Source of the DNA: a virus | Reading direction: 5' to 3' (one strand) | IMG/VR virus record: IMGVR_UViG_3300023174_000094 | Coordinates: 32,001 to 96,000 of that record | DNA: 64,000 nucleotides | Part shown: piece by piece, positions 20,701 to 54,057 of the stretch | Position numbering within the stretch: position 1 is the stretch's first letter | Layout: the number at the start of each line of letters is the position of its first letter | Translations under genes and position numbers: made by a program | Notes under the pieces: generated by a model | What the model saw: the letters and a program-made list of their open reading frames with translations, nothing else | The model's database searches: none | What the model was told of the DNA's origin: nothing

Positions 20701-21645
20701 ATTAGCGACTCCTCTAGTATTATTGATGCTGACTACACTGTTGCGCTACAGTGTAATAAAGTGGTTATACCGATTGCAGGGCTTGCATCAGCCGCTGCTG
20801 GAACACAATCTCTATGGAGAGCACCAGACCCTACAACCTTAAGCTCTGTTGCGCTTACTGCAAATATAAACTCAAGTGTTAATACTATTTATGTATCAAC
20901 AACTGAGGATCCACCATTTCCAACTTCTGGTTATCTAAAAATTGAGAATGAAATTGTAAAATATAATTCAAAGACGAGAAATTCTTTTAACAATGTTGAG
21001 AGAGGTCAGTTTCAGACTACCGCCGCTTCTCATGCAAGTGGTGTTAAGGCAAGAGAGGCTAAGTATTACAACCTTAAGTATGACAAAGCACCAGCTTTTA
21101 ATATTAGATCACCTTTCATAACTGGAATTCTATTTGAAGATCCAGATGAAATTGAGATTGTTAAGTTTTTGCCTGGTCCTTATGGAGCTGAGTTAATAAT
21201 TTCAACATCAAATAGTGTCGGGAGTGGAACAATTGTATTTGCTGAGGGAACCAACCCTCTTACAGACAAAGTTGCATTTACATCAATTGCTGGTGTTCCA
21301 GTCATTATCACTGAGCAGAATACTCAGGTTACTCAGCAATCAGCATTGAACACTGATTCAATCAAAAAGTATGGACTAAAGGATGTTATTATTGAAAGCC
21401 CATTTATTAGCGATGCAGTGCATGCTCAGAAGCTAGCTGATTTTATAATCTCTAAAACACAAGACTCTGTTCCAATTCTTAATATTAATGCTACAGCTAT
21501 TCCAAAGATTCAACTTGGTGATAGAATAAGAATATCAACAATGAGCTCTTTTGATATAATTAATGCTGACTACTGGGTGATATCTCAATCACTAAATGTT
21601 GGAGACACTCTGCAGCATCAGTTAACTCTTAGGAAGGTGGTTTAA
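17722..21645 (+). CDS. Large tail-tip / hub protein with PA14-like and LamG (ConA-like) domains
   Basis: SD GAGGAGG; PA14-like GLRARFW...DGYYIP...GVRVYLDD...KIRIEFF; LamG-like HHITVTY...YVNG...IGG...IDEFALYN.AL. Confidence 0.75.
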   Translation: MLTTDIYGKTLSSSFETASTSVAQRVKPKIVIQWLDSRHIDNLVVTTNDSHANSAYPSIGFYFDKTQAFNGVERQSFTWAVAGAKDENGKVITADGTYHAMPSLTGSDLSNTQLGSSLEFGWWSNSISNSNTHSTYSGYGFSTNPYIQAVFDERKVNRIRIVTSEFFGGISNYLVEAYNAASALILSEEGQIKDGSYYQDHIISTQTSQNVARIRVTVRTTKNPQDRARIQEVIPIYETDITDYVIDYEFSRTRDVHQSSLPIGGSETAKASINLDNTEKNFSIFNNASLFGKYMKKDLKVNIATGWRIKKNLEDLNAEYYSSTIASNITSSSTTISVVDATGFPSGGAGNHFTLIIGKGTQNEEIILCSQSSDDRTVVVEERGYAGSIARSHASGTSITFDLFEYVSAGTYYVDEWSSSSSSMSVSVSLNDWSKYLTERTINTGFFMQNAYVGDAVKNLLMRANFPSADVKKLGKYSSGSRDRGAIANYSFNEEAIDRSGNAIIPGSGLRARFWGMPSGGEPNVKDILADALDKQLSPLDLALGLKSFVSPSYVALSKDISANVTSAIEITNFSFTGTNGITYSQYFNGVFDGYYIPRTSGEQRLVVYIRYGGVRVYLDDTLILNQWRMNTTTGGALTRFQSDLLNLTAGSPRKIRIEFFHAFDDNNGSSFSIKLYKAVGISADALISAGEFCTVVATDSIGSRNAAFTSDPNRNVNRNNGIYIASPSLSQATGLTSEPDNKSVLLASNSYIRIPYHSSLDVTNSNSYLYTGDWSFELFTKFNNGSFASDGEYISNWSNSNPNTGFEFFNNSSSHGFKIKTLSNATVVTETVSSNTALSNSSFHHITVTYSDNTLKYYVNGQIADSEIVEGTPIAWTSRDITIGGRGASYTSGTGESAPSAFRAFTIDEFALYNVALSDQDVAERYSESSIQPLTMFPFLYGNDETIRSILDGITFADLGRVYIDEQNKARYEHFYRFFESSIPQHANVQYTISDSSSIIDADYTVALQCNKVVIPIAGLASAAAGTQSLWRAPDPTTLSSVALTANINSSVNTIYVSTTEDPPFPTSGYLKIENEIVKYNSKTRNSFNNVERGQFQTTAASHASGVKAREAKYYNLKYDKAPAFNIRSPFITGILFEDPDEIEIVKFLPGPYGAELIISTSNSVGSGTIVFAEGTNPLTDKVAFTSIAGVPVIITEQNTQVTQQSALNTDSIKKYGLKDVIIESPFISDAVHAQKLADFIISKTQDSVPILNINATAIPKIQLGDRIRISTMSSFDIINADYWVISQSLNVGDTLQHQLTLRKVV

Positions 21646-22928
21646 TGGCAACAAGCAATTCTATATCTGAAAATGCAATTTCTTTCTATGCCTCTGGTGG
21701 TCACTCTCATGATGGCTCTACCTCTTCCTTAATCAAGACAGACTCATATTCCATTTATGACTTTAATCCAAGTTTCGTTGGAGATAATCCAGAGAGAAGG
21801 CGGGCTCAGGTTAATAACTATAATTCCTTTAGGCAATTAGTTGTTAATACAATTAATTCTACTGTTCTTGAGCCAGCAGGTATTGTACTGCAAGATAATA
21901 TTATTAACAGCAGAAATATAATTTCTGGCTCAATCACGGCAGTAGAAATTGCATCAAACACAATCACTGCAGATAATATTGCGGCAAATACGATTACTTC
22001 AAATAACATTGCAGCAAATACAATTACCGCAAATAATATTGCTACAGGAGCGATCACCGCAGATGAATTATCAGCAAGTCTTGTTCTTGTTAATAATGTA
22101 ATTAGAAGCAATAATTTTAACGGAACTATTGCCGCAAATAATGTAATTACATCTCAAGGAACATCTGGATGGGCTATAACAAGTTCTGGAGATGCTGTAT
22201 TCTCTAATACAGCCATTAGAGGAACAATAACCGCTGGTGCTTTATATATTAATGCAAATAATTATTGGAATGCAAATGGTACAGTAGTCATGGGTAATGC
22301 AGCTGCTAGCAGTGGTTTTTATTTTAACCCATCTACGGGATTAGCGGTGACAGGGCAGATAACGGCTACTAGTGGAGCAATAGCTTCTTTTGATATTGTT
22401 GGCGCTAATTTATACACTGGAAATTCTTTTCTTGGATACATAAATTTAGGTCCAACAACTACGGCTCATGGCGGTGTTCCTGCAGGTGAGATTGTGGTTG
22501 CAACTAGAGACCCTGCTGATAACCATGTAGTCTCTTCATCACTAAAAGGGCAAGAGCTTAGAATTGAAGATGCTGACAATGCAGCCTACACAACAGTGGT
22601 TAATAAATATGGTTTTTACACTAATGGTGTTGTGTCATCTGATTCCGTTGAAACGGATGCTGTTATATATCCATACGGCGCAAATCAAATAGCTTTTAGA
22701 TGGTCAGGAAGTGCGCTATATGCGGTGATTGATGGAGCTACGGAATACCTGTTGAGCACTGGAGGATCAGCCCCAGCAGTTACGGCAGTTAGCCCTTCAG
22801 TTACTCCTGAAGTTAGTCCTTCTGTTTCACCAGGCGGTGGTTGCCCAACTTGCCCTACGCATACAGAGCCATGCTGCCCACCAGCAGTCTGTGGTTATGA
22901 TGAAAAGCTTGGAAATTATTGCTTGTAA
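21645..22928 (+). CDS. Minor tail protein with 10-aa ITAxxIAANT repeats and Pro/Cys-rich C-terminus
   Basis: GHSHDG motif, repeats, GWAI..GDAVF...IRGTI motif; ends PSVTPEVSPSVSPGGGCPTC...CC...C...CL. Confidence 0.7.
   Translation: MATSNSISENAISFYASGGHSHDGSTSSLIKTDSYSIYDFNPSFVGDNPERRRAQVNNYNSFRQLVVNTINSTVLEPAGIVLQDNIINSRNIISGSITAVEIASNTITADNIAANTITSNNIAANTITANNIATGAITADELSASLVLVNNVIRSNNFNGTIAANNVITSQGTSGWAITSSGDAVFSNTAIRGTITAGALYINANNYWNANGTVVMGNAAASSGFYFNPSTGLAVTGQITATSGAIASFDIVGANLYTGNSFLGYINLGPTTTAHGGVPAGEIVVATRDPADNHVVSSSLKGQELRIEDADNAAYTTVVNKYGFYTNGVVSSDSVETDAVIYPYGANQIAFRWSGSALYAVIDGATEYLLSTGGSAPAVTAVSPSVTPEVSPSVSPGGGCPTCPTHTEPCCPPAVCGYDEKLGNYCL
21933..22070 (+). repeat. Degenerate 30-bp tandem coding repeat (about 4.5 units)
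   Basis: ITAVEIASNT ITADNIAANT ITSNNIAANT ITANNIATGA ITADEL. Confidence 0.8.
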
Positions 22929-22950
22929 TTTTTTGATAAAAATAGTTATT

Positions 22951-22964
22951 TGCTATGATATACT
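22951..22964 (+). promoter_or_regulatory. Extended -10 promoter(s) for the GNAT cassette
   Basis: Overlapping TGCTATGAT and TGATATACT in an intergenic gap. Confidence 0.5.
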
Positions 22965-22992
22965 GAAATAATATTGAGAACGGAGATTTGAA

Positions 22993-23517
22993 ATGAGTAG
23001 TGCAGAGCAAAATAGCGTTTGGGAGCCAAAGGTTCCAACAGAGCCAGATAATAATTTCAATGACTGGTTAAATTGGGAGAATAGATTTGGTGAGTATGGA
23101 GAGCCAGGATATGAAAGGCTAACACTCCCAGCAAAAGTTCCAAAAGTCTTTGGTAGTGATTCACCTGTTGATCTTATTTTTACGCTTCTCCGAGATGATG
23201 ATGGTTTGCTTATTGGTGTTCATGCATCATATTTTGATACTGATGGAATCCGACATCCATTTTTAATGACAGTGCATCCTGACCACAGAAGAAAGGGAAT
23301 CGCAACACAGATTGCTCTCTATCTAGAGGAAGAATTTGTTGCAAATGAAGCTCATAAGTATGGAATGTCACCTGCTGAATTTGCTGCAATGCCAAGATCT
23401 GAAATGGCAGCGCTAGTCGTGCCAGATATTTATAAAGATGTGACAGTGAATAATGCTGGCGCTGGTTTTCTTAACAAGATTGTTGACCAGTTTTACAATG
23501 TTGAAAGAGAATTTTAA
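22993..23517 (+). CDS. GNAT-family acetyltransferase
   Basis: Acetyl-CoA motif A: MTVHPDHRRKGIAT; downstream NNAGAGFL. Confidence 0.75.
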   Translation: MSSAEQNSVWEPKVPTEPDNNFNDWLNWENRFGEYGEPGYERLTLPAKVPKVFGSDSPVDLIFTLLRDDDGLLIGVHASYFDTDGIRHPFLMTVHPDHRRKGIATQIALYLEEEFVANEAHKYGMSPAEFAAMPRSEMAALVVPDIYKDVTVNNAGAGFLNKIVDQFYNVEREF

Positions 23518-23519
23518 TT

Positions 23520-23747
23520 ATGACACCGTATCAAGAATGGAAGAAAAGTCTAGGTGAAACTCGCCCTTGGGATGTTCTTAATCCAAATACGGAGAAAGCA
23601 TCTGAAGAAGAAGCAGAGAGGCGAATGTCTATATGCGAGCAGTGCCCAAGCCTGCTTAAAATTACTAATCAATGTAAAGAATGTGGTTGTGTTATGAAGT
23701 TAAAAACTAAGTTAATGAAAGCGACATGTCCACTTGATAAGTGGTAA
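23520..23747 (+). CDS. Small Cys-rich protein (DUF6171-like)
   Basis: R..IC..CP.L....QCKECGC.M..K......CP..KW. Confidence 0.65.
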   Translation: MTPYQEWKKSLGETRPWDVLNPNTEKASEEEAERRMSICEQCPSLLKITNQCKECGCVMKLKTKLMKATCPLDKW

Positions 23748-23748
23748 T

Positions 23749-24348
23749 ATGCCAAAAAAATTAGCACCTGGTATTTATGTTTATAATTCTGATCAGATTT
23801 CTGGCTATCTTGATGCTATAAAAAACAGTATAACTTTATTTTTTAATGACGGAAAACTTGTATCCCTAGATTCAGAAAATGGGCAGTATAACAGTGTTGT
23901 TGATACAGATATAAGAAAAGTAGGTGTTTTTTCTTTTTCACAATCCTATTCATGTCATGAAGATGACCCTGTTAATATTTTTAAAAGACAAATTGAAAAA
24001 ATAGGAGATGAAGTTATTAACTCCTATAGGGGAATTCATAATATGGGTGATTTATTAAAAAATCACGAGTGGCAGATCATAAAGTACGATATTGGTAGTT
24101 TTTTTAAAAATCACATTGACGATTGCGCCGCCTACAGCAGAACTGTTTCTATTCTTATGTATTTTAATGACGATTATGATGGCGGGGAAATTGAATTTCC
24201 AGAGTTTGATATTTTCTATAAGCCTCAATTGGGCGATGTTCTGGTATTCCCTTCAAGCTTTATATATAACCATAGCGTGAAGGAAGTAACCAGTGGAGTG
24301 CGATATGCAGCCGTTAACTGGTTTTCTTATGCAAAACTCAATAAATGA
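23749..24348 (+). CDS. 2OG-Fe(II) oxygenase, prolyl-4-hydroxylase-like
   Basis: HID...RTVSILMYFNDDYDGGEIEF...FPS...H.V..VTSGVRY. Confidence 0.85.
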   Translation: MPKKLAPGIYVYNSDQISGYLDAIKNSITLFFNDGKLVSLDSENGQYNSVVDTDIRKVGVFSFSQSYSCHEDDPVNIFKRQIEKIGDEVINSYRGIHNMGDLLKNHEWQIIKYDIGSFFKNHIDDCAAYSRTVSILMYFNDDYDGGEIEFPEFDIFYKPQLGDVLVFPSSFIYNHSVKEVTSGVRYAAVNWFSYAKLNK

Positions 24349-24362
24349 TGTATAATAGATAA

Positions 24363-25034
24363 ATGGCTTACGAAAACTACTCATTTGTATCTTGGACAGA
24401 TGGAACCCCAATAACTGGAGACCGACTTGCTCAAATGTCCACAAATATAGATCAGGTTAAAGACGCTACTGATGACAAACCGTTTGGTCTTTTAAAGTTT
24501 AAAACTGTTACATCAAGTCCTGGATCTTGGTCAGATTTTACTGATCATGAAATTATCAAGCTCGCCGATGAATCTGGGACTGGTGGTGCTGATAACAGAG
24601 TGACTGTGGGATCTAGTCGTTTTTATAGAGTAACAATTAATTTTACTGGTTTTGTTGTTGATGCAAGAGGTGCTGAGGATTCAACATATAATTTAAAAAT
24701 ATGCACAGGGACTTTTGGAGGGGCAAACACAACCCTTCAGCAATACAGGTTCACTGCTCATCCATTTACATACATTGATGTATCAACCCTTGGTAACTCT
24801 GCAACAATTGCAAATCATTCATTAAAGAACAATGCTTATGATACGAGATTTGGTGCAGGTACTCATTCAATCATCCTCCAGAGCAATTCTGCTGGATTTA
24901 CAAATCAATCTTACTTTGTCAGCGTAAAGAGAGATCAAGGGGCAAGTGCATCTAACGCCCCAGCTTACTCCATTCCAGCATCCGTTGGTGGTGAATTGCA
25001 AATGTACATTGAAGATGTCGGTGGAACAGCCTAA
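24363..25034 (+). CDS. Putative minor tail / baseplate-associated protein
   Basis: N-terminal Y...W.DGTPIT..RL..M...I anchor-like motif; TATAAT 6 nt upstream (leaderless). Confidence 0.5.
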   Translation: MAYENYSFVSWTDGTPITGDRLAQMSTNIDQVKDATDDKPFGLLKFKTVTSSPGSWSDFTDHEIIKLADESGTGGADNRVTVGSSRFYRVTINFTGFVVDARGAEDSTYNLKICTGTFGGANTTLQQYRFTAHPFTYIDVSTLGNSATIANHSLKNNAYDTRFGAGTHSIILQSNSAGFTNQSYFVSVKRDQGASASNAPAYSIPASVGGELQMYIEDVGGTA

Positions 25035-25470
25035 TCCTATTAGAGGTGGTTTGGCATCTAGGCGAGATGATATAGACTGGTCTGCAAAATTTGCTAATGG
25101 CGAGGAAAGCCCTAATTTTAGCGGTGGTAAATATATAGATGATAAGGGATATGTTCGTGTATTAAATCCAGATCATCCTAAAAATATTCGTGGATATGTT
25201 TATGAACATAGGCTTGTGATTGAGCAGTATTTAAATAGATACCTTCAACCTTGGGAAACTGTTCATCACATTAATGAAATTAAAATAGATAATAGGCTTT
25301 CTAATTTATTTTTATGCACACCTCAAGAGCATAGCGCTCTTCATAAAGAGGGTGTTAGGATGAAGGATGAGCAGAAGCAAAAGATGAGAAAAACTGCTCA
25401 AGAAACAAAACCTCATACAAAAAAGAAAAATGCCTCTAATAAGATTGCAATCAAAAAAAGACTCCCATAG
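25015..25470 (+). CDS. HNH endonuclease
   Basis: YVYEHRLV.E..L.R.L...E.VHHIN..K.DNR..NL. Confidence 0.85.
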   Translation: MSVEQPNPIRGGLASRRDDIDWSAKFANGEESPNFSGGKYIDDKGYVRVLNPDHPKNIRGYVYEHRLVIEQYLNRYLQPWETVHHINEIKIDNRLSNLFLCTPQEHSALHKEGVRMKDEQKQKMRKTAQETKPHTKKKNASNKIAIKKRLP

Positions 25471-25491
25471 ACAATTTCATTGACTATACTG

Positions 25492-25500
25492 TGGTATGCT
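25492..25500 (+). promoter_or_regulatory. Extended -10 promoter at start of replication module
   Basis: TGGTATGCT, followed by SD AAGGAG and ATG 25524. Confidence 0.5.
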
Positions 25501-25523
25501 AGACGGAAACCAAAGGAGTCCTA

Positions 25524-26690
25524 ATGAAAGTTTGTGCAACAGAAGGTTGTAATATAGAGTTTGAACCAAAAACGGCTAATGCTAAATATGGTGATAAATC
25601 ATGTAGAAAGACCATAGATATTAATGGTCTATGTAGATATAGAAAAGAAAACGGTCTATTTGAGATAGGAGAAAATCCATTGACTGGAACAGTGCCAGAA
25701 ACAGAAAGCGAATTGCGTCTTTCTTATAATAAGTTATTGCAGGAATATAATAAGGCAAAAGAAAAGAATGTTGATCTAGCAGACGCTGTATATCGTGCGG
25801 TGCGAGAAGATATTGAGTCGGTTAAGTATGTACCAGTACCAAAGCCAAAGTTTGGGAAAGCTACTAAAGGTGAGGAAGTCGCTGTTGCTGTTATTGCAGA
25901 CTGGCAGTTGGCAAAAATCACTCCAGACTACAACTCGCAGGTTTGTGAGGAAAGAATCTATAAGTATGCAGAAAAGATTATTCAACTTACTGAGATTCAA
26001 AGACAAGATCACCCAGTAAAAGAATTGCATATTTGGGCTCTTGGAGACATTATTGAGGGAGAGCTTATTTTCCCAGGTCAATCATTCTTGGTTGATGGTG
26101 GTCTGTACAGACAGATTACTGTTGACGGTCCAAGAATTATGAAGAACTTTATCAACATGATGCTTGAAAATTTTGAGAAGATTGTTTTTGTCGGTGTTAT
26201 TGGAAATCATGGTTCAATTGGTGGTAGGGCTAGAAAAGATCATGACCCTGAGACCAATGGTGACAGAATGCTTTATCGCATTACTCAGCTCATGTTTGAG
26301 AATGAAAAAAGAATTGAATTCAGAATCCCTGATGGTCGTGGTGAAAGACACTGGTATGCGGTTGATAAGATTGGCAATTACAAGAGTCTATTGTGTCATG
26401 GTGATCAGTTCGGTAGTCTTTCAACATTCTACGGCTTTCAGAAGAAGGCTTATGGTTGGAAGATCGGGGCTATAGAAGATGATTTTGATGATGTCTATCT
26501 AGGACACTTCCATACTCCTACAAAGATGACATTCAATACTGTTCAGATGAGAATCTCAGGAAGCCCTGAATCAACAAACACTTATGCTGTAGAGAGACTA
26601 GCTGCTGTAGGCAGACCATCACAGCCCCTTATGTTTGTGCATCCTGAAAAGGGTATTGTTACTGCTGAATACAATTGCTGGCTGGATTAA
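25524..26690 (+). CDS. Calcineurin-like metallophosphoesterase with N-terminal Cys motif
   Basis: DWQ, GD.IEG, GNH, HGD, GHFH motifs. Confidence 0.8.
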   Translation: MKVCATEGCNIEFEPKTANAKYGDKSCRKTIDINGLCRYRKENGLFEIGENPLTGTVPETESELRLSYNKLLQEYNKAKEKNVDLADAVYRAVREDIESVKYVPVPKPKFGKATKGEEVAVAVIADWQLAKITPDYNSQVCEERIYKYAEKIIQLTEIQRQDHPVKELHIWALGDIIEGELIFPGQSFLVDGGLYRQITVDGPRIMKNFINMMLENFEKIVFVGVIGNHGSIGGRARKDHDPETNGDRMLYRITQLMFENEKRIEFRIPDGRGERHWYAVDKIGNYKSLLCHGDQFGSLSTFYGFQKKAYGWKIGAIEDDFDDVYLGHFHTPTKMTFNTVQMRISGSPESTNTYAVERLAAVGRPSQPLMFVHPEKGIVTAEYNCWLD

Positions 26691-26691
26691 T

Positions 26692-26910
26692 ATGGTTAAA
26701 GCAACTGGTCTATATTGTCAACCTTGTGGTTCAAGGCTGTTTGTTGGTCAACAATATTATGCATTTCAAAAAAATTATATTGATGTAACCTGTACCAAGT
26801 GTGCTCATTCAATTGATGTAGAGGTAAGAAAGCTTAACAAAATTCTAGATTATCTTGGCTTTAAAACGATCAAGGAGCGACATGATCTCAGCGAAACCAA
26901 CAACAAATAA
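26692..26910 (+). CDS. Zn-ribbon protein
   Basis: CQPC...CTKC. Confidence 0.65.
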   Translation: MVKATGLYCQPCGSRLFVGQQYYAFQKNYIDVTCTKCAHSIDVEVRKLNKILDYLGFKTIKERHDLSETNNK

Positions 26911-27316
26911 ATTTTATAAATATGCAGGTAATATTGTCAAGATCAAGAAAATCTCAAGAAACAAGAATAAGATTTATTTAGAAAACCTTATTGATAAGGA
27001 AACAATCGTTATTCCGTATGAGCAATCTGAAATTCTGATTACAAGGCTATACACTGTCGGTGAGGTAGCAAAAATTGTTGAGAGAAGACCAGATACTTTG
27101 AGGAAGTATGAAAGAAGAAATCTTATTCCTTCTGCAGAAAAATTTGGTGAAAAGTACATAGGTTATTCAAATTGGCGCTATTATGATCAAAGTGCAGTTT
27201 ATGAAATGGTTGAGTTCTTTAACCAAAGAGTTCAAGGTCGCCCTGTTACTAAAAAAGGTAATACGGTAGAAAATAAAATACACACATTAGAGCAAAAAGT
27301 AAAACTTCATAAGTGA
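26882..27316 (+). CDS. MerR-like HTH DNA-binding protein
   Basis: YTVGEVAKIV.R...TLRKYERRNLIP...WRYY. Confidence 0.8.
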   Translation: MISAKPTTNKFYKYAGNIVKIKKISRNKNKIYLENLIDKETIVIPYEQSEILITRLYTVGEVAKIVERRPDTLRKYERRNLIPSAEKFGEKYIGYSNWRYYDQSAVYEMVEFFNQRVQGRPVTKKGNTVENKIHTLEQKVKLHK

Positions 27317-27323
27317 GGATGAT

Positions 27324-27533
27324 ATGAGTGAAAATATTAAAGGTACAGAAATTTGGGCATCGCTTGGAATTACCAAGAATCTTGGCAATTATGAGTCGCT
27401 AAGGCTTGATGCTGGTGCAAGGACTCAGGCTAAAGATCCTGATGATCCTGAAGCCTGGGCAAAGGTTTGGGAATCAATTGATGCTCAAATTGAAGCCAAG
27501 CTTCAAGAGCTAGATAATGAAAGCCCAAAGTGA
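27324..27533 (+). CDS. Conserved actinophage-type hypothetical protein
   Basis: LG.TKNLGNYESLRLD motif; SD GAGGA. Confidence 0.65.
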   Translation: MSENIKGTEIWASLGITKNLGNYESLRLDAGARTQAKDPDDPEAWAKVWESIDAQIEAKLQELDNESPK

Positions 27534-27816
27534 TTGGCTAAACGAAGCTGTCTGTGCAAATGATGAACGACCAACAGCTTGGCTATCGTATGACATTAGC
27601 GATATACAATACGCCAAGCTTGGTTGTTCTAAATGCACTGTGAGAAAGCAATGCATTCTTAATGCATTTCGTAATGACCCATATGTAGGTGTAAACGCAG
27701 GGATATCCGAGTATGACTTTTTAATGCTTACTTGGAAGGAGGCTACAAAAGTAAATGGAAGTAACTGGAGCAGAGCTGATAAAGTTCTTCAAGGAATCGT
27801 GCGACAAGTCAAATAA
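27517..27816 (+). CDS. whiB: WhiB-family transcription factor (divergent)
   Basis: W..EAVC...AK..C.KC.VR.QC...GVNAG (four Cys). Confidence 0.7.
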   Translation: MKAQSDWLNEAVCANDERPTAWLSYDISDIQYAKLGCSKCTVRKQCILNAFRNDPYVGVNAGISEYDFLMLTWKEATKVNGSNWSRADKVLQGIVRQVK

Positions 27817-31580: not shown

Positions 31581-34500
31581 GTGACAGATTTTGTTCACCT
31601 GCACTGCCATAGCGAGCACTCGCTACTGGATGGAATGTCAACGCCCGAAGAGATTGCACAGATTTCAAGCTCAAATGGTCAGTTTGCTGCTGCCATTACT
31701 GATCATGGGACAATGGGTGGTGTTCTAAGATTCCAGGATGCATGTAGAAAAAATAATGTAAGACCATTGTTTGGTGTTGAATCGTATTTTGTACCATCAG
31801 TTAAAAGTGATAGTGATGATAAGAGCGAAAGATTTCACTTGATTCTTCTTGCCAAGAACAATCAAGGACTCAATAAGTTATTCAAAATGTCTCAAATTGG
31901 ATGGCAGGATAACTTCTATTACAAGCCAAGAATTGACTTTGAACTTCTTGAGGACTTGGTTGATGATGATGTAATTGCATTGTCGGGCTGCAGAGGAAGC
32001 GCTATATCAAAAGCCATAGAGGCTGGTGATTACTCCAGGGCGGAGCAGTTGTCGGAGCGATTCATCAAGATATTTAAAGATGATTTTTATTATGAACTGC
32101 AGGCGTGGAATCCAAAGGAGATTAACGATGGATTACTTGATCTTGCCTCTACATTCGGAAAGAAAGCTTTAGCAACTGCTGATTGCCATTTCCCTACGCA
32201 TGAAGATAAGGGGTGCGAAGAAGTTCTTCTTCTTATTTCCCAGTATCCAAGCCTTGGTGCCAGCGCTACAAATGCGGCTAAAGATAGTCTTGCAACAATC
32301 AATACAGTTGGATCTGATGTGTTGAGCAAGGTTAATCACATGTATCCAAATAGATTTTTAAGATTTGATGATATTAATCCATACATCGCAAACGCTACTA
32401 CTGTTCAATCCTGGTTTAAAGAAGTTGGTTATGACAGAACAGATTTGTTTGAGAATACATTGGAAGTCGCTCATAAATGCAGTGCAGAAATCGCAAAGAA
32501 GCGCAACTTGCTTCCGAAATATATTAAATCACTTGACTCAGATGATTACTTGCGAGAAGTGTCTGAATTTAGATTAAAAGAGCTTGGGCTCAGCAATGAA
32601 TACAAAGAAAGACTTAATGAAGAACTAGAGATTATTAAAGGATTGGGTTTCTCTGACTACTTCTTGATGGTATGGGACTTAATCTCATGGGCTGACGCTA
32701 ATAACATTGGGCGTGGTACTGGTAGAGGTTCTGTTGGCGGTAGCTTACTTGCGTACCTGCTAAAGATATCAAAAGTAGATCCGATCAAATACAATCTATT
32801 ATTCGCTCGCTTTATTAATCCTGAGCGAAATGACTATCCCGACATTGACTTAGACTTTGAAGATAAGCGCAGAGGTGAGATTAAAGAATATCTTAGACAG
32901 CGATGGGGCAAAGACAATGTTGCTGCTATTACAACATTTGGGACATTCAAGGCTAAATCTGCTGTAAAAGATGTTGCTAGAGTTCTTCAGGTTCCTTACG
33001 ATGAAACAAACAATGTTACTCAGTTCTTTGAGACAATTGAGGAATTGATTGAATCACCAAAGGGCAAAGCATTCTGTAATAAATATCCTGATGTGCCAAA
33101 GCTTGCAAAGAGATTAGAGGGTCGTGTTCGCAATACAGGCGTACACGCTGCTGGAATGGTTGTTTCATCTATTCCATTAAATGAAGTATGCCCAATTGAA
33201 ACTAGAAAAGAAACAGACGGTGGTGAGCGTGTAACGGTTACTGCTTTTGACATGACCGATGCAGAAGCTGTTGGTCTTATTAAAGTTGACATTTTAGGTC
33301 TAAAGACCGTATCTGTGATTAAAGATTGCCTAGCGAAGATTAAAGAGCGCACAGGCAAGGATGTAGAGGCTGAGTCTCTAATGCTTGACGATGAATTGGT
33401 CTTTAAGAACTTTAATGACGGTAATACCGTAGGTGTATTCCAGACTGATGCGGCTGCCTACAGAAACCTTATTGAGAGAATGGGAATTGACAATTTTAAC
33501 GACCTTGTTGTGTCTAATGCTCTGGTAAGACCAGGCGCTCTTCTTTCTCAGGGTCAAAAATATATTGACTGCAAAAAGGGAGTCACTCAGCCATATTTTC
33601 CTGATGAATCAGTAAGAGAGATCTTGGAAGAAACATATGGGACAGTGATTTTTCAAGAACAATTGATGCAAATGTCAGTAAAGCTTTCGGGATTTACATG
33701 GTCGGATGCAGATAAGTTAAGAAAGATCATCGGAAAGAAAAGAGATGTTAAGGAATTTAAAGAGTTTAAAGATAAGTTTGTCAATAATGCAATCATTCCA
33801 AAAGCAGAGGCAAGGCAGATCTGGTCTGAGTTTGAAATGTCTGCTCTATATATGTTCAATAAATCACATGCTGTAGCGTATTCAATGCTTTCATATCAAA
33901 CAATGTGGTTGAAAGTTAACTATCCACTTGAATTTATTTGGTCTCTTCTATATAACGAAGATTCGGCTGAAAAGATTACTGCATACCTGATGGAAGCTCA
34001 AAGAATTGGTATTCCAATTCTTCCACCTGATGTCAACTACTCAGAAGAATACTTTACTACTGATAGCAGTACTGGTCTTGATGCGATTAGATTCGGTCTT
34101 GCGAATATCGCTGGATGTGGTAAGGCTGCTATTAAAGAGATTGAAGCAAAAAGACCATTTACCTGCCTTGATGAGTTTAATAATAAATGCTCCAAGTCTG
34201 CTGTTAAAGCACCATTGAGAGAAAATCTTGAAAAGGTCGGAGCTTATGCATCACTAGGTCATGTCTCTCAGTTTCAACATGAAAGATATTACTTACCAAT
34301 CCTGGGATTTTCAATTAAGGCTGGTGAAGAAAAGAATGAAATGGATGAGTTCGTTGGCAACCTTGCTGATTTCCATGAAATCAACTCACCCCTGACATTG
34401 ATTAAAGCAATTGTTAGATCAACAAAGAAAACACCCCAATATCTAAGAATTGAATTTGAAGATTACTCTGGCTCATCAACTGTGTTTGCAAGTAGAGATA

Positions 34501-53679: not shown

Positions 53680-54057
53680 ATGAGTAATTATCCACCTGGG
53701 GTTACTGGCAATGAATATGAAATTGCTGGCGGTAACGAATTTGAAGAGCATTTTGATTGTAGTGCAACTACAGAGTATGTATTGCTTACACAAAGAGAAA
53801 TCTATTATCTCAGTGATTATGCCTTGTCATTGTTTAATGAATTCAAAAGGGCTGGAAATATTAGTGAGTGGTGGATTGAGAATAAGCTAAAACCTTTGAT
53901 GCGTGATTTGAATAGTTTCTACCATTCAGATAACACGGTTGAGAAAGATTGTGATTTCTCTGGAGAAATATTAAAAGAAGAATTTAGAGGAACAGTTTAC
54001 TTTGAATGTCCTAAATGTGAAAAGGGTTATGAAGAAGATGCGTATCACGGTGAATAA
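53680..54057 (+). CDS. Hypothetical protein with C-terminal CxxC
   Basis: MSNYPPGVTGNEYEIAG; CPKC. Confidence 0.65.
   Translation: MSNYPPGVTGNEYEIAGGNEFEEHFDCSATTEYVLLTQREIYYLSDYALSLFNEFKRAGNISEWWIENKLKPLMRDLNSFYHSDNTVEKDCDFSGEILKEEFRGTVYFECPKCEKGYEEDAYHGE

Follow-up and report, generated by a model that had tools for sequence, protein, structure and literature searches.

The analyzed window, a 64,000-nt stretch (positions 32,001 to 96,000) of the IMG/VR record IMGVR_UViG_3300023174_000094, derives from a complete 106.6-kb uncultured lake phage, probably of actinobacteria. It contains a tail-fibre gene whose product ends in a proline-rich linker and a small six-cysteine module, followed by genes for a GNAT acetyltransferase, a DUF6171 protein and a prolyl-4-hydroxylase (P4H)-type 2-oxoglutarate (2OG) oxygenase. 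The fibre gene follows a gene for a 1316-aa minor tail protein with PA14 and LamG domains. It shares its N-terminal region with a large fibre family. The 388 homologs recovered have C-termini that are either Cys-rich tails or a Peptidase_S74 chaperone domain (PF13884), whereas the fibre of the window has no Pfam hit to S74. PHROG searches gave only weak hits to tail and virion proteins, and DNA and protein searches of the fibre region against a collection of isolated phages found nothing.

Features of the fibre-tip locus, in window coordinates.
Feature	Position	Strand	Size	Description
Tail-fibre gene	21645-22928	+	427 aa	N-terminal ~260 aa shared with fibre family; beta-rich domain at residues ~260-370
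Linker plus GGG	22767-22841	+	residues 375-396 and 397-399	Pro/Ser/Thr/Val linker followed by GGG; proposed substrate of the 2OG oxygenase
Six-Cys module (KNOT6)	22842-22925	+	28 aa (residues 400-427)	C-x2-C-x6-CC-x4-C-x9-C; Cys at 400, 403, 410, 411, 416 and 426; Pro413 and Lys421 invariant
Intergenic gap	22929-22992	+	64 nt	Lies between fibre and GNAT genes
Extended -10-like element	22956-22964	+		TGATATACT, TGnTATAAT-like; about 18 nt upstream of the GGAG
Ribosome-binding site	22982-22985	+		GGAG
GNAT acetyltransferase	22993-23517	+	174 aa	PF00583, 26.1 bits (cut-off 20.7), E 1e-5
DUF6171 protein	23520-23747	+	75 aa	PF19668, 33.4 bits (cut-off 27); phrog_13558, E 6.5e-16; proposed shared partner or adaptor
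2OG-Fe(II) oxygenase	23734-24348	+	204 aa from the TTG at 23734	PF13640 (2OG-FeII_Oxy_3), 59.1 bits (cut-off 27), E 9e-16; ATG at 23749, 2 nt after the DUF6171 stop, is the more likely start
Downstream protein	24363-25034	+	223 aa	Unknown function; downstream border of the swappable block, not part of the cassette

A sequence-only reading had described this arrangement and proposed a virion-displayed, post-translationally matured peptide with adjacent tailoring enzymes. Its observation is correct to the residue. Of the five prolines in the linker, the last four are spaced 4 residues apart. The claimed local rise in GC content is also present, with 0.44-0.45 at 22550-23000 against 0.35-0.40 around it, which Pro, Ala and Gly codons would explain. 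The claim that the cassette has its own promoter is plausible. A simple two-hexamer scan finds nothing in the gap, but the extended -10-like element is conserved in four relatives (loci L002, L025, L026 and L039) whose intergenic DNA has otherwise diverged, and no terminator follows the fibre gene. The claim that the cassette lies between two structural genes is only half verified. The upstream gene encodes the fibre, while the downstream 223-aa protein, although it is the constant neighbor in all relatives and directly follows the fibre in every relative lacking the cassette, matches no family in Pfam, PHROG or NCBIfam searches.

In a predicted structure of the whole fibre monomer (AF2, mean pLDDT 55), which was too poor to search with or to read disulfides from, residues 260-370 have pLDDT values of 70-88 and the linker falls below 50, so it is probably disordered or extended. 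The six-Cys module is modeled at pLDDT 65-73 with a beta-hairpin at 416-419/423-426. Length and composition of the linker are hypervariable among homologs. The module, in contrast, is conserved beyond chance, with eight invariant positions (six Cys, one Pro and one Lys) across two unrelated carrier types, fibres and FN3 proteins, although the Cys module of one GNAT-containing locus, L102, lacks the Lys. Its cysteines follow the C-C-CC-C-C framework of inhibitor cystine knots (knottins). The loops of 2, 6, 0, 4 and 9 residues fit the knottin consensus CX3-7CX3-6CX0-5CX1-4CX4-13C in four cases, while the first is shorter than the minimum of 3. The only PDB sequences reached by a profile search were knottins, at non-significant E-values of 0.4-5, and Pfam has no family for any of the Cys modules.

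The three downstream proteins are assigned by profile matches above the curated cut-offs. The closest solved relatives of the 2OG protein are Bacillus anthracis prolyl 4-hydroxylase (E 4e-5) and prolyl 3-hydroxylase 1 (P3H1; E 1e-4), and its iron-binding HxD...H triad (H127, D129 and H180) is invariant in 29 of 29 family members from the loci. The GNAT contains the stretch RRKGIA, matching the acetyl-CoA loop R/Q-x-x-G-x-G/A, but has no close solved relative (best E 0.68). DUF6171 has six invariant Cys (CxxC...QCKxCGC...CP..KW) in an alignment of 36 sequences with 45-79% identity. It is predicted with high confidence (AF2 pLDDT 90), yet its model shows no relationship to PDB folds (Foldseek E 6.6, VIA Z 2.1). 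Only one Cys-tailed protein and one DUF6171 are encoded in the genome, whereas two further 2OG genes lie away from this fibre.

The sequence-only reading had named, as a result that would count against it, the occurrence of the enzymes independently of the Pro/Cys tail. We examined this by gene-neighborhood analysis and found no such independence among the loci sampled. Among non-redundant loci of the fibre family, DUF6171 follows 10 of 10 Cys-tailed fibres and 0 of 21 fibres with any other tail. Close relatives with 92-98% identical flanks lack the cassette exactly when the fibre has an S74-type end. The switch occurred at least 3 times on the exonuclease tree and at least 4 times on the minor-tail tree, all concordant, and a metagenome scan replicated the pattern. 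The Fisher tests are not corrected for phylogeny, and the 3-4 strictly independent contrasts within the fibre family are too few for a sign test to reach significance (p 0.125-0.25).

The association extends to unrelated carriers. A 268-aa FN3 protein (L102) and proteins of 242-245 aa (L075, L085 and L086) end in a Pro repeat plus a Cys module and are followed by the same cassette. Of 46 non-redundant DUF6171 genes, 39 (85%) have a protein with at least 5 Cys in 40 aa ending within 1 kb upstream, compared with 55 of 709 (8%) control anchors. A stricter test of the immediately upstream gene under-counted the association (33%); a ~70-aa gene, for which Pfam gave no family, or the GNAT often intervenes. 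These loci were collected with peptide patterns from the protein of the window, so the sample is biased to a subfamily at 45% identity or more. The rule does not hold for distant DUF6171 homologs (33-53% identity) in cultured phages, including S-SCSM2R, PSS2, CRP-143, Moby, X1 and TM30, where no Cys-rich carrier lies upstream, and the idea that DUF6171 always follows Cys-rich carriers was rejected. A PSS2-like identity of the phage, suggested by similar size and gene position, was likewise rejected, as the best cultured matches of the exonuclease are actinophages.

Each enzyme tracks a different feature of the tail. The 2OG gene is present with 22 of 26 Pro-rich carriers and with 3 of 17 others. 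Some homologs, however, have Gly-rich linkers with few Pro (P0028 and L047), and L047 still carries 2OG. Among DUF6171 loci, the KNOT6 module is found in 8 of 9 loci with GNAT and in 1 of 37 without; among Cys-tailed fibres, GNAT occurs with 7 of 7 KNOT6 tails and 0 of 3 other tails. A reverse search from the GNAT returned only 4 close loci and thus no independent test. In the poly-Thr fibre locus L152 and the Thr/Ala carrier locus L113, a Gnt1-family GlcNAc transferase (PF11397) takes the place of 2OG. In addition, DUF6171 is naturally fused to a 2OG oxygenase in L110 and to a glycosyltransferase in P0121. The sequence-only reading had overlooked that the constant partner of such tails is DUF6171 rather than the hydroxylase, and that the GNAT is the most tail-specific component.

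Our data suggest that the three genes form a dedicated maturation cassette for the fibre tip, which we consider the more likely explanation, although not a secure one. In this view, the fibre carries a flexible Pro-rich stalk ending in a cysteine knob instead of the usual self-cleaving C-terminal chaperone domain. The 2OG oxygenase would hydroxylate prolines of the linker, and possibly of the Pro-rich knob, and the GNAT would acetylate the knob, with the invariant Lys421 in its last loop as the obvious candidate. DUF6171, a small and probably metal-binding protein, would couple whichever tailoring enzyme is present to Cys-rich tails, as an adaptor or folding factor. The cassette would then be one variant of a modular system of stalk, knob and matched enzymes. 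Gene content, catalytic residues, co-variation and fusions are established by our analysis, whereas every chemical step, including the hydroxylation of peptidyl proline, is inferred from gene neighborhood alone, and the disulfide knot, the role of DUF6171 and the idea that the knob is the receptor-binding or protective tip are likewise only inferred. Display on the virion is inferred only from the protein being a fibre. The interpretation of the sequence-only reading is partly supported, and its term "RiPP-like" is too strong for what is only an analogy.

Alternatively, fibres that lost the S74 intramolecular chaperone may need separate folding or trimerization helpers, encoded just downstream and swapped together with the tip, as with Tfa or gp38-type chaperones. 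DUF6171 and the small conserved ~70-aa protein, which sits between carrier and DUF6171 in about 20 loci, would be such helpers and the enzymes incidental. In support of this, the cassette is present exactly where the S74 domain is absent, fibre tips and their chaperones move as blocks in lambda, P2 and T4, and DUF6171 follows fibre genes without a Cys tail in S-SCSM2R and CRP-143. However, this does not explain the catalytically intact oxygenases, the matching of each enzyme to a tail feature or the fusions of DUF6171 to enzymes. The 45-79% identity of DUF6171 across carriers that barely align is unlike tip-specific chaperones, and fibres such as L010 have neither an S74 domain nor the cassette. 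We regard this explanation as unlikely.

Less likely still, the knob may be a Zn- or Fe-binding module rather than a disulfide knot, giving a metal-stabilized tip assembled in the reducing cytoplasm, with DUF6171 as its metallochaperone or as a redox partner of the oxygenase. Disulfides do not normally form in the bacterial cytoplasm, both the knob and DUF6171 contain CxxC pairs, and DUF6171 has no fold match and a Cys pattern that, in our view, resembles zinc knuckles. Against this, the Cys spacing and the C-terminal hairpin resemble cystine knots, and virions are released into oxic lake water, where disulfides can form. This variant is compatible with our main explanation for the enzymes. 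Similarly unlikely is that the genes are hitch-hiking morons or auxiliary genes acting on host targets such as host proteins or the envelope, which sit next to the fibre tip only because that junction is a recombination hot spot, so that linkage with the tail type reflects shared history and not function: although PHROGs files the 2OG family under "moron, auxiliary metabolic gene and host takeover", other 2OG genes exist in the genome, distant DUF6171 genes lie among small early-type genes in Stenotrophomonas, Xanthomonas and Rhizobium phages, and a promoter-like element precedes the cassette, the recurrence of the linkage on unrelated carriers and in unrelated phages, the enzyme-to-tail matching and the concordant switches argue against it.

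Phage genomes, above all those of aquatic and cyanobacterial phages, are rich in 2OG-Fe(II) oxygenase genes annotated as auxiliary metabolic genes with no known substrate. We found no literature on DUF6171 and no paper describing such a system. The co-variation names a concrete candidate substrate, a 50-residue fibre tail that can be synthesized, together with a partner protein and three predicted mass shifts, which makes the question directly testable. It raises the possibility, which remains tentative, that aquatic phages possess a modular, adaptor-guided system for tailoring virion tips, comprising a swappable stalk and cysteine knob, DUF6171 as a new small fold and common docking or folding subunit, and interchangeable enzymes: a prolyl hydroxylase for Pro stalks, a GlcNAc or other glycosyltransferase for Thr stalks and an acetyltransferase for one knob type. 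This would give a function to the long-unexplained phage oxygenases and would be the first case of hydroxyproline or acetyl-lysine on a bacteriophage receptor-binding tip. If so, phages would be tuning their host-binding tips by eukaryote-style chemistry (hydroxyproline, O-glycans, acetyl-lysine), with bearing on host range, virion stability and escape from host or grazer recognition, and the knob and stalk units would be a natural, genetically encoded display scaffold.

A precedent for the proposed hydroxylation is the monomeric P4H-type oxygenase of chlorovirus PBCV-1, whose demonstrated substrates are short Pro-containing repeats, (Pro-Ala-Pro-Lys)n, of the kind encoded by the virus itself (Eriksson et al. 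1999, as summarized in PMC3634087). That enzyme belongs to a eukaryotic giant virus, with no linked substrate gene and no DUF6171, GNAT or Cys knob, whereas the putative phage enzyme is operon-linked to one fibre tail. In Skp1 hydroxyproline glycosylation of Dictyostelium and Toxoplasma, a cytoplasmic P4H-type enzyme (PhyA) and a PF11397 transferase (Gnt1) act in sequence on one protein. In the phage loci, PF11397 genes occupy the slot of the oxygenase after DUF6171 (L152, L113 and L076). The transferase mostly replaces the oxygenase instead of following it; it goes with Thr-rich linkers and may glycosylate Thr directly. The window itself has no transferase. In vertebrate collagen prolyl 4-hydroxylase, an alpha2-beta2 tetramer, the catalytic subunit is paired with the CxxC-containing protein disulfide isomerase as the beta subunit (PMC3634087), but DUF6171 has no detectable similarity to this thioredoxin-fold protein and the analogy is functional speculation only.

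Mycobacteriophage enzymes reportedly decorate C-terminal extensions of virion proteins covalently (Freeman et al. 2023, Cell Host Microbe; cited in PMC12801897), but these are glycosyltransferases acting on capsid and tail-tube proteins, without a hydroxylase, acetyltransferase, DUF6171 or Cys knob. Knottins share the six-Cys framework, the length of about 28 residues and the predicted C-terminal hairpin with the module, which is, however, tethered to a 400-aa fibre and is not a free secreted peptide. As in RiPP clusters, a gene-encoded candidate substrate lies next to tailoring enzymes and a small constant partner occurs free or fused to enzymes, as RiPP recognition elements do. Here, in contrast, there is no leader peptide or peptide release, neither a peptidase nor a PqqD-like recognition element was found in the five genes around the tail, and the peptide remains the C-terminus of a structural protein. 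Finally, as in the tip cassettes of lambda and P2 (Tfa) and T4 (gp38/gp57A), and in relation to S74-type ends, which are the alternative allele at this locus, the distal end of the fibre and the genes directly behind it are exchanged as one block between close relatives, but the downstream genes in this phage are enzymes plus a conserved six-Cys protein rather than tip-specific chaperones.

The tail fibre is encoded by an open reading frame of 427 codons, and the account of its last 53 residues given in the sequence-only reading is exactly right. A linker of Pro, Ser, Thr and Val residues is followed by three glycines and a 28-residue module containing six cysteines. The GC content rises to 0.44-0.45 over the tail, compared to 0.35-0.40 in the surrounding DNA. 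Three genes, encoding a GNAT acetyltransferase, a DUF6171 protein and a 2OG-Fe(II) oxygenase, follow on the same strand. The nearest solved relatives of the oxygenase are bacterial prolyl 4-hydroxylase (P4H) and prolyl 3-hydroxylase 1. The 64-nt gap before the GNAT gene holds a conserved extended -10-like element and a GGAG, although a two-hexamer promoter scan did not pick the element up; no terminator follows the fibre gene. Upstream of the fibre lies a gene for a 1316-aa minor tail protein with PA14 and LamG domains.

Coordinates of the fibre, its downstream genes and related features in this and other loci
Feature	Sequence	Position	Strand	Details
Fibre gene	window	21645-22928	+	427 aa
Variable repeat block of the fibre	window	21900-22060 (residues ~85-140)		~9-residue NTIT.NNIA-type repeats
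Linker	fibre protein	residues 375-396		Pro/Ser/Thr/Val
Glycine triplet	fibre protein	residues 397-399		GGG
Terminal Cys module	fibre protein	residues 400-427		Cys at 400, 403, 410, 411, 416 and 426; C-x2-C-x6-CC-x4-C-x9-C
GNAT	window	22993-23517	+	PF00583
DUF6171	window	23520-23747	+	PF19668
2OG-FeII_Oxy_3 oxygenase	window	23734-24348	+	PF13640
HNH endonuclease, from its first start codon	window	24946-25470		overlaps the end of the 223-aa gene by 89 nt
Region with a second 2OG oxygenase	virus record (G000:C1)	22333-27721		4.3-9.7 kb before the window start
Second 2OG oxygenase	virus record (G000:C1)	24331-24924		
~70-aa protein	locus L040	6188-6415		
~70-aa protein	locus L047	9151-9348		
~70-aa protein	locus L072	5777-6004		
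~70-aa protein	locus L152	6552-6764		
Carrier with repeats after the Cys-rich module	locus L066	7905-9377		
Carrier with repeats after the Cys-rich module	locus L099	4864-5358		
Carrier with repeats after the Cys-rich module	locus L122	948-2762		
DUF6171-like ORF	cyanophage PSS2 (L135), NC_013021.1	about 53858-54043		unannotated
Cluster with DUF6171 and 2OG/P4H genes	Synechococcus phage Sf-FS3 (L139), PV340856.1	180-187 kb		

The DNA (bases 32001-96000) belongs to a complete virus record of 106,648 bp, the relatives of which are all contigs from lake metagenomes. The best cultured matches of the exonuclease are actinophages at 42-44% identity; the host is probably an actinobacterium. The genome has one Cys-tailed protein and one DUF6171, but three 2OG oxygenase genes. 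A second of these oxygenases, outside the window, sits after a 572-aa protein with FN3 repeats and Gly-rich sequence and a 109-aa small protein, and just before a 919-aa protein with a long Pro/Glu/Thr-rich acidic region and a C-terminal membrane segment. This looks like another pairing of a structural protein with a tailoring enzyme in the same genome.

The fibre family is modular. The N-terminal ~260 residues are shared by 388 homologs, whose C-termini fall into two classes: a Pro/Thr/Ser/Val (rarely Gly) linker followed by a module of four, six or more cysteines, or a Peptidase_S74 intramolecular chaperone domain. Within the Cys class the module is conserved, while the linker varies freely in length and composition. 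The N-terminal part of the fibre also contains a variable number of short repeats; one homolog (P0002) has 31 more residues of them, and most homologs lack the block altogether.

The sequence-only reading had proposed asking whether the downstream genes co-occur with the Pro/Cys tail. The genes around the fibre are syntenic across the group, in the order minor tail protein, fibre, a variable slot, 223-aa protein, HNH endonuclease and exonuclease. In more distant relatives the HNH gene starts right after the 223-aa gene, so that its true start in the window is probably further downstream than the first start codon. In relatives with flanks 92-98% identical to the window, the variable slot is empty exactly when the fibre has an S74-type end, and contains GNAT-DUF6171-2OG when the fibre has the Cys tail. 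Over all non-redundant loci from the viral and metagenome collections, DUF6171 is found with 10 of 10 Cys tails and with 0 of 21 other tails (Fisher p 2e-8, not corrected for phylogeny). The exonuclease tree requires four changes of state, at least three of which are forced by well-supported branches, and the minor-tail tree requires six. Strictly independent contrasts number three and four on the two trees; all are concordant, but they are too few for a sign test.

The association extends beyond this fibre. In locus L102, GNAT-DUF6171-2OG lies directly behind an unrelated 268-aa FN3 protein that ends in (PPSF)5 and a six-Cys module. We searched outward from DUF6171, using patterns derived from the protein of the window, so that the loci retrieved sample one subfamily. 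Of 46 non-redundant DUF6171 genes, 39 have a protein with at least 5 Cys in 40 aa ending within 1 kb upstream on the same strand, compared to 55 of 709 control anchors in the same loci (p 4e-32). Most of the seven exceptions have 4-Cys modules. The Cys-rich carriers range from 107 to 1142 aa, 13 of 28 have an FN3 domain, and their PHROG hits are to tail proteins. The order of stalk and knob is not fixed, as some carriers place (PPSFFG)n-like or (PD)n repeats after the Cys-rich module instead of before it.

The rule does not hold in cultured phages, in which all DUF6171 matches are below 60% identity. In S-SCSM2R, DUF6171 follows an S74-type long tail fibre, and in CRP-143 it follows Gly-rich fibre-like proteins. 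In the cultured Prochlorococcus siphovirus PSS2, an unannotated copy sits between a Cys-poor tail protein (gp076) and the tape measure (gp077). In Moby, X1 and TM30 it lies among small early-type genes, whereas in the Synechococcus phages S-IOM18 and Sf-FS3 it lies beside 2OG genes. The Sf-FS3 cluster comprises four 2OG/P4H genes, a thioredoxin-domain protein and sugar-nucleotide enzymes (dehydratase, epimerase, methyltransferase), which raises the possibility of a larger tailoring island.

Each enzyme tracks a different feature of the tail. Among the DUF6171 loci, a 2OG gene lies downstream of 22 of 26 carriers with at least 5 Pro in 20 aa and of 3 of 17 others, two of which still have sparser Pro repeats. 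GNAT occurs in nine loci, and eight of their carriers end in the same terminal module as the fibre of the window, compared to 1 of 37 loci without GNAT. Three of these eight are FN3-type carriers (L075, L085, L086). The module has eight invariant positions across both carrier types: six Cys, one Pro and one Lys, the latter being Lys421 in the window. Inside the fibre family, GNAT accompanies 7 of 7 such tails and 0 of 3 other Cys tails. In locus L152, which has the same fibre family at the same position but a poly-Thr linker, the cassette consists of a ~70-aa protein, DUF6171 and a PF11397 (Gnt1-family) GlcNAc transferase. The same transferase family follows DUF6171 in L113, where the linker is Thr/Ala, and in L076, while a GT61 enzyme follows DUF6171 in L079. 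The ~70-aa protein (consensus FAFVVDGEVA...SSNP...GWTYDGT.F) belongs to a conserved family that lies between the Cys-rich carrier and DUF6171 in many phages, including L040, L047, L072 and about 17 other loci. It matches no Pfam family and is absent from the cassette of the window, where GNAT takes its position.

DUF6171 is 45-79% identical across phages whose carriers barely align, with invariant residues R35, C39, C42, Q51, C52, C55, G56, C57, K62, C70, P71 and W75. AF2 gives a confident model (pLDDT 90) without a match in the PDB. The Atlas clusters are all viral, and our literature search found no paper that mentions the family. DUF6171 occurs naturally fused to a 2OG oxygenase in locus L110 and to a glycosyltransferase in protein P0121, which matches phrog_14945 with E 3e-50. 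The 304-aa near-twin of P0121, P0122, probably carries the same fusion. In a further protein, P0123, DUF6171 appears, by eye only, to be fused to two copies of what looks like the ~70-aa protein. These fusions argue that DUF6171 works physically with the tailoring enzymes.

The best-supported reading is a dedicated tailoring cassette for a displayed fibre tip. In this view, the oxygenase would hydroxylate prolines of the stalk and perhaps of the knob, GNAT would acetylate the knob with Lys421 as the candidate, and DUF6171 would be the shared partner, as an adaptor or as a folding or metal factor. Gene content, intact active-site residues, co-occurrence with tail features and natural fusions are established by our analysis, whereas hydroxylation, acetylation, display of the tip, the part played by DUF6171 and the disulfide knot are inferred. 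The evidence for a knot is weak: the module has pLDDT 65-73 with a C-terminal hairpin in the AF2 model, the only PDB sequences touched by its profile are knottins at E 0.4-5, and its first loop is shorter than in the knottin consensus. The interpretation offered by the sequence-only reading is supported in part. Its description of the system as RiPP-like holds only as an analogy; there is no leader, no protease and no release. The main alternative is that the genes are trans-acting assembly factors replacing the S74 chaperone. This accounts for the presence/absence pattern, but not for the intact active sites, the matching of enzyme to tail feature or the fusions.

Our literature searches found no published description of such a cassette. 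The proposed pairing of a P4H with a CxxC protein recalls collagen P4H and its PDI subunit (PMC3634087), although there is no sequence or fold relationship. The proposed action of the oxygenase is akin to that of the PBCV-1 enzyme, which hydroxylates viral Pro repeats (PMC3634087), and the cassette as a whole can be compared to this viral P4H system and to phage virion glycosylation. What is new with respect to both is the constant component, DUF6171, and the type of proposed substrate, a Cys knob on a stalk.
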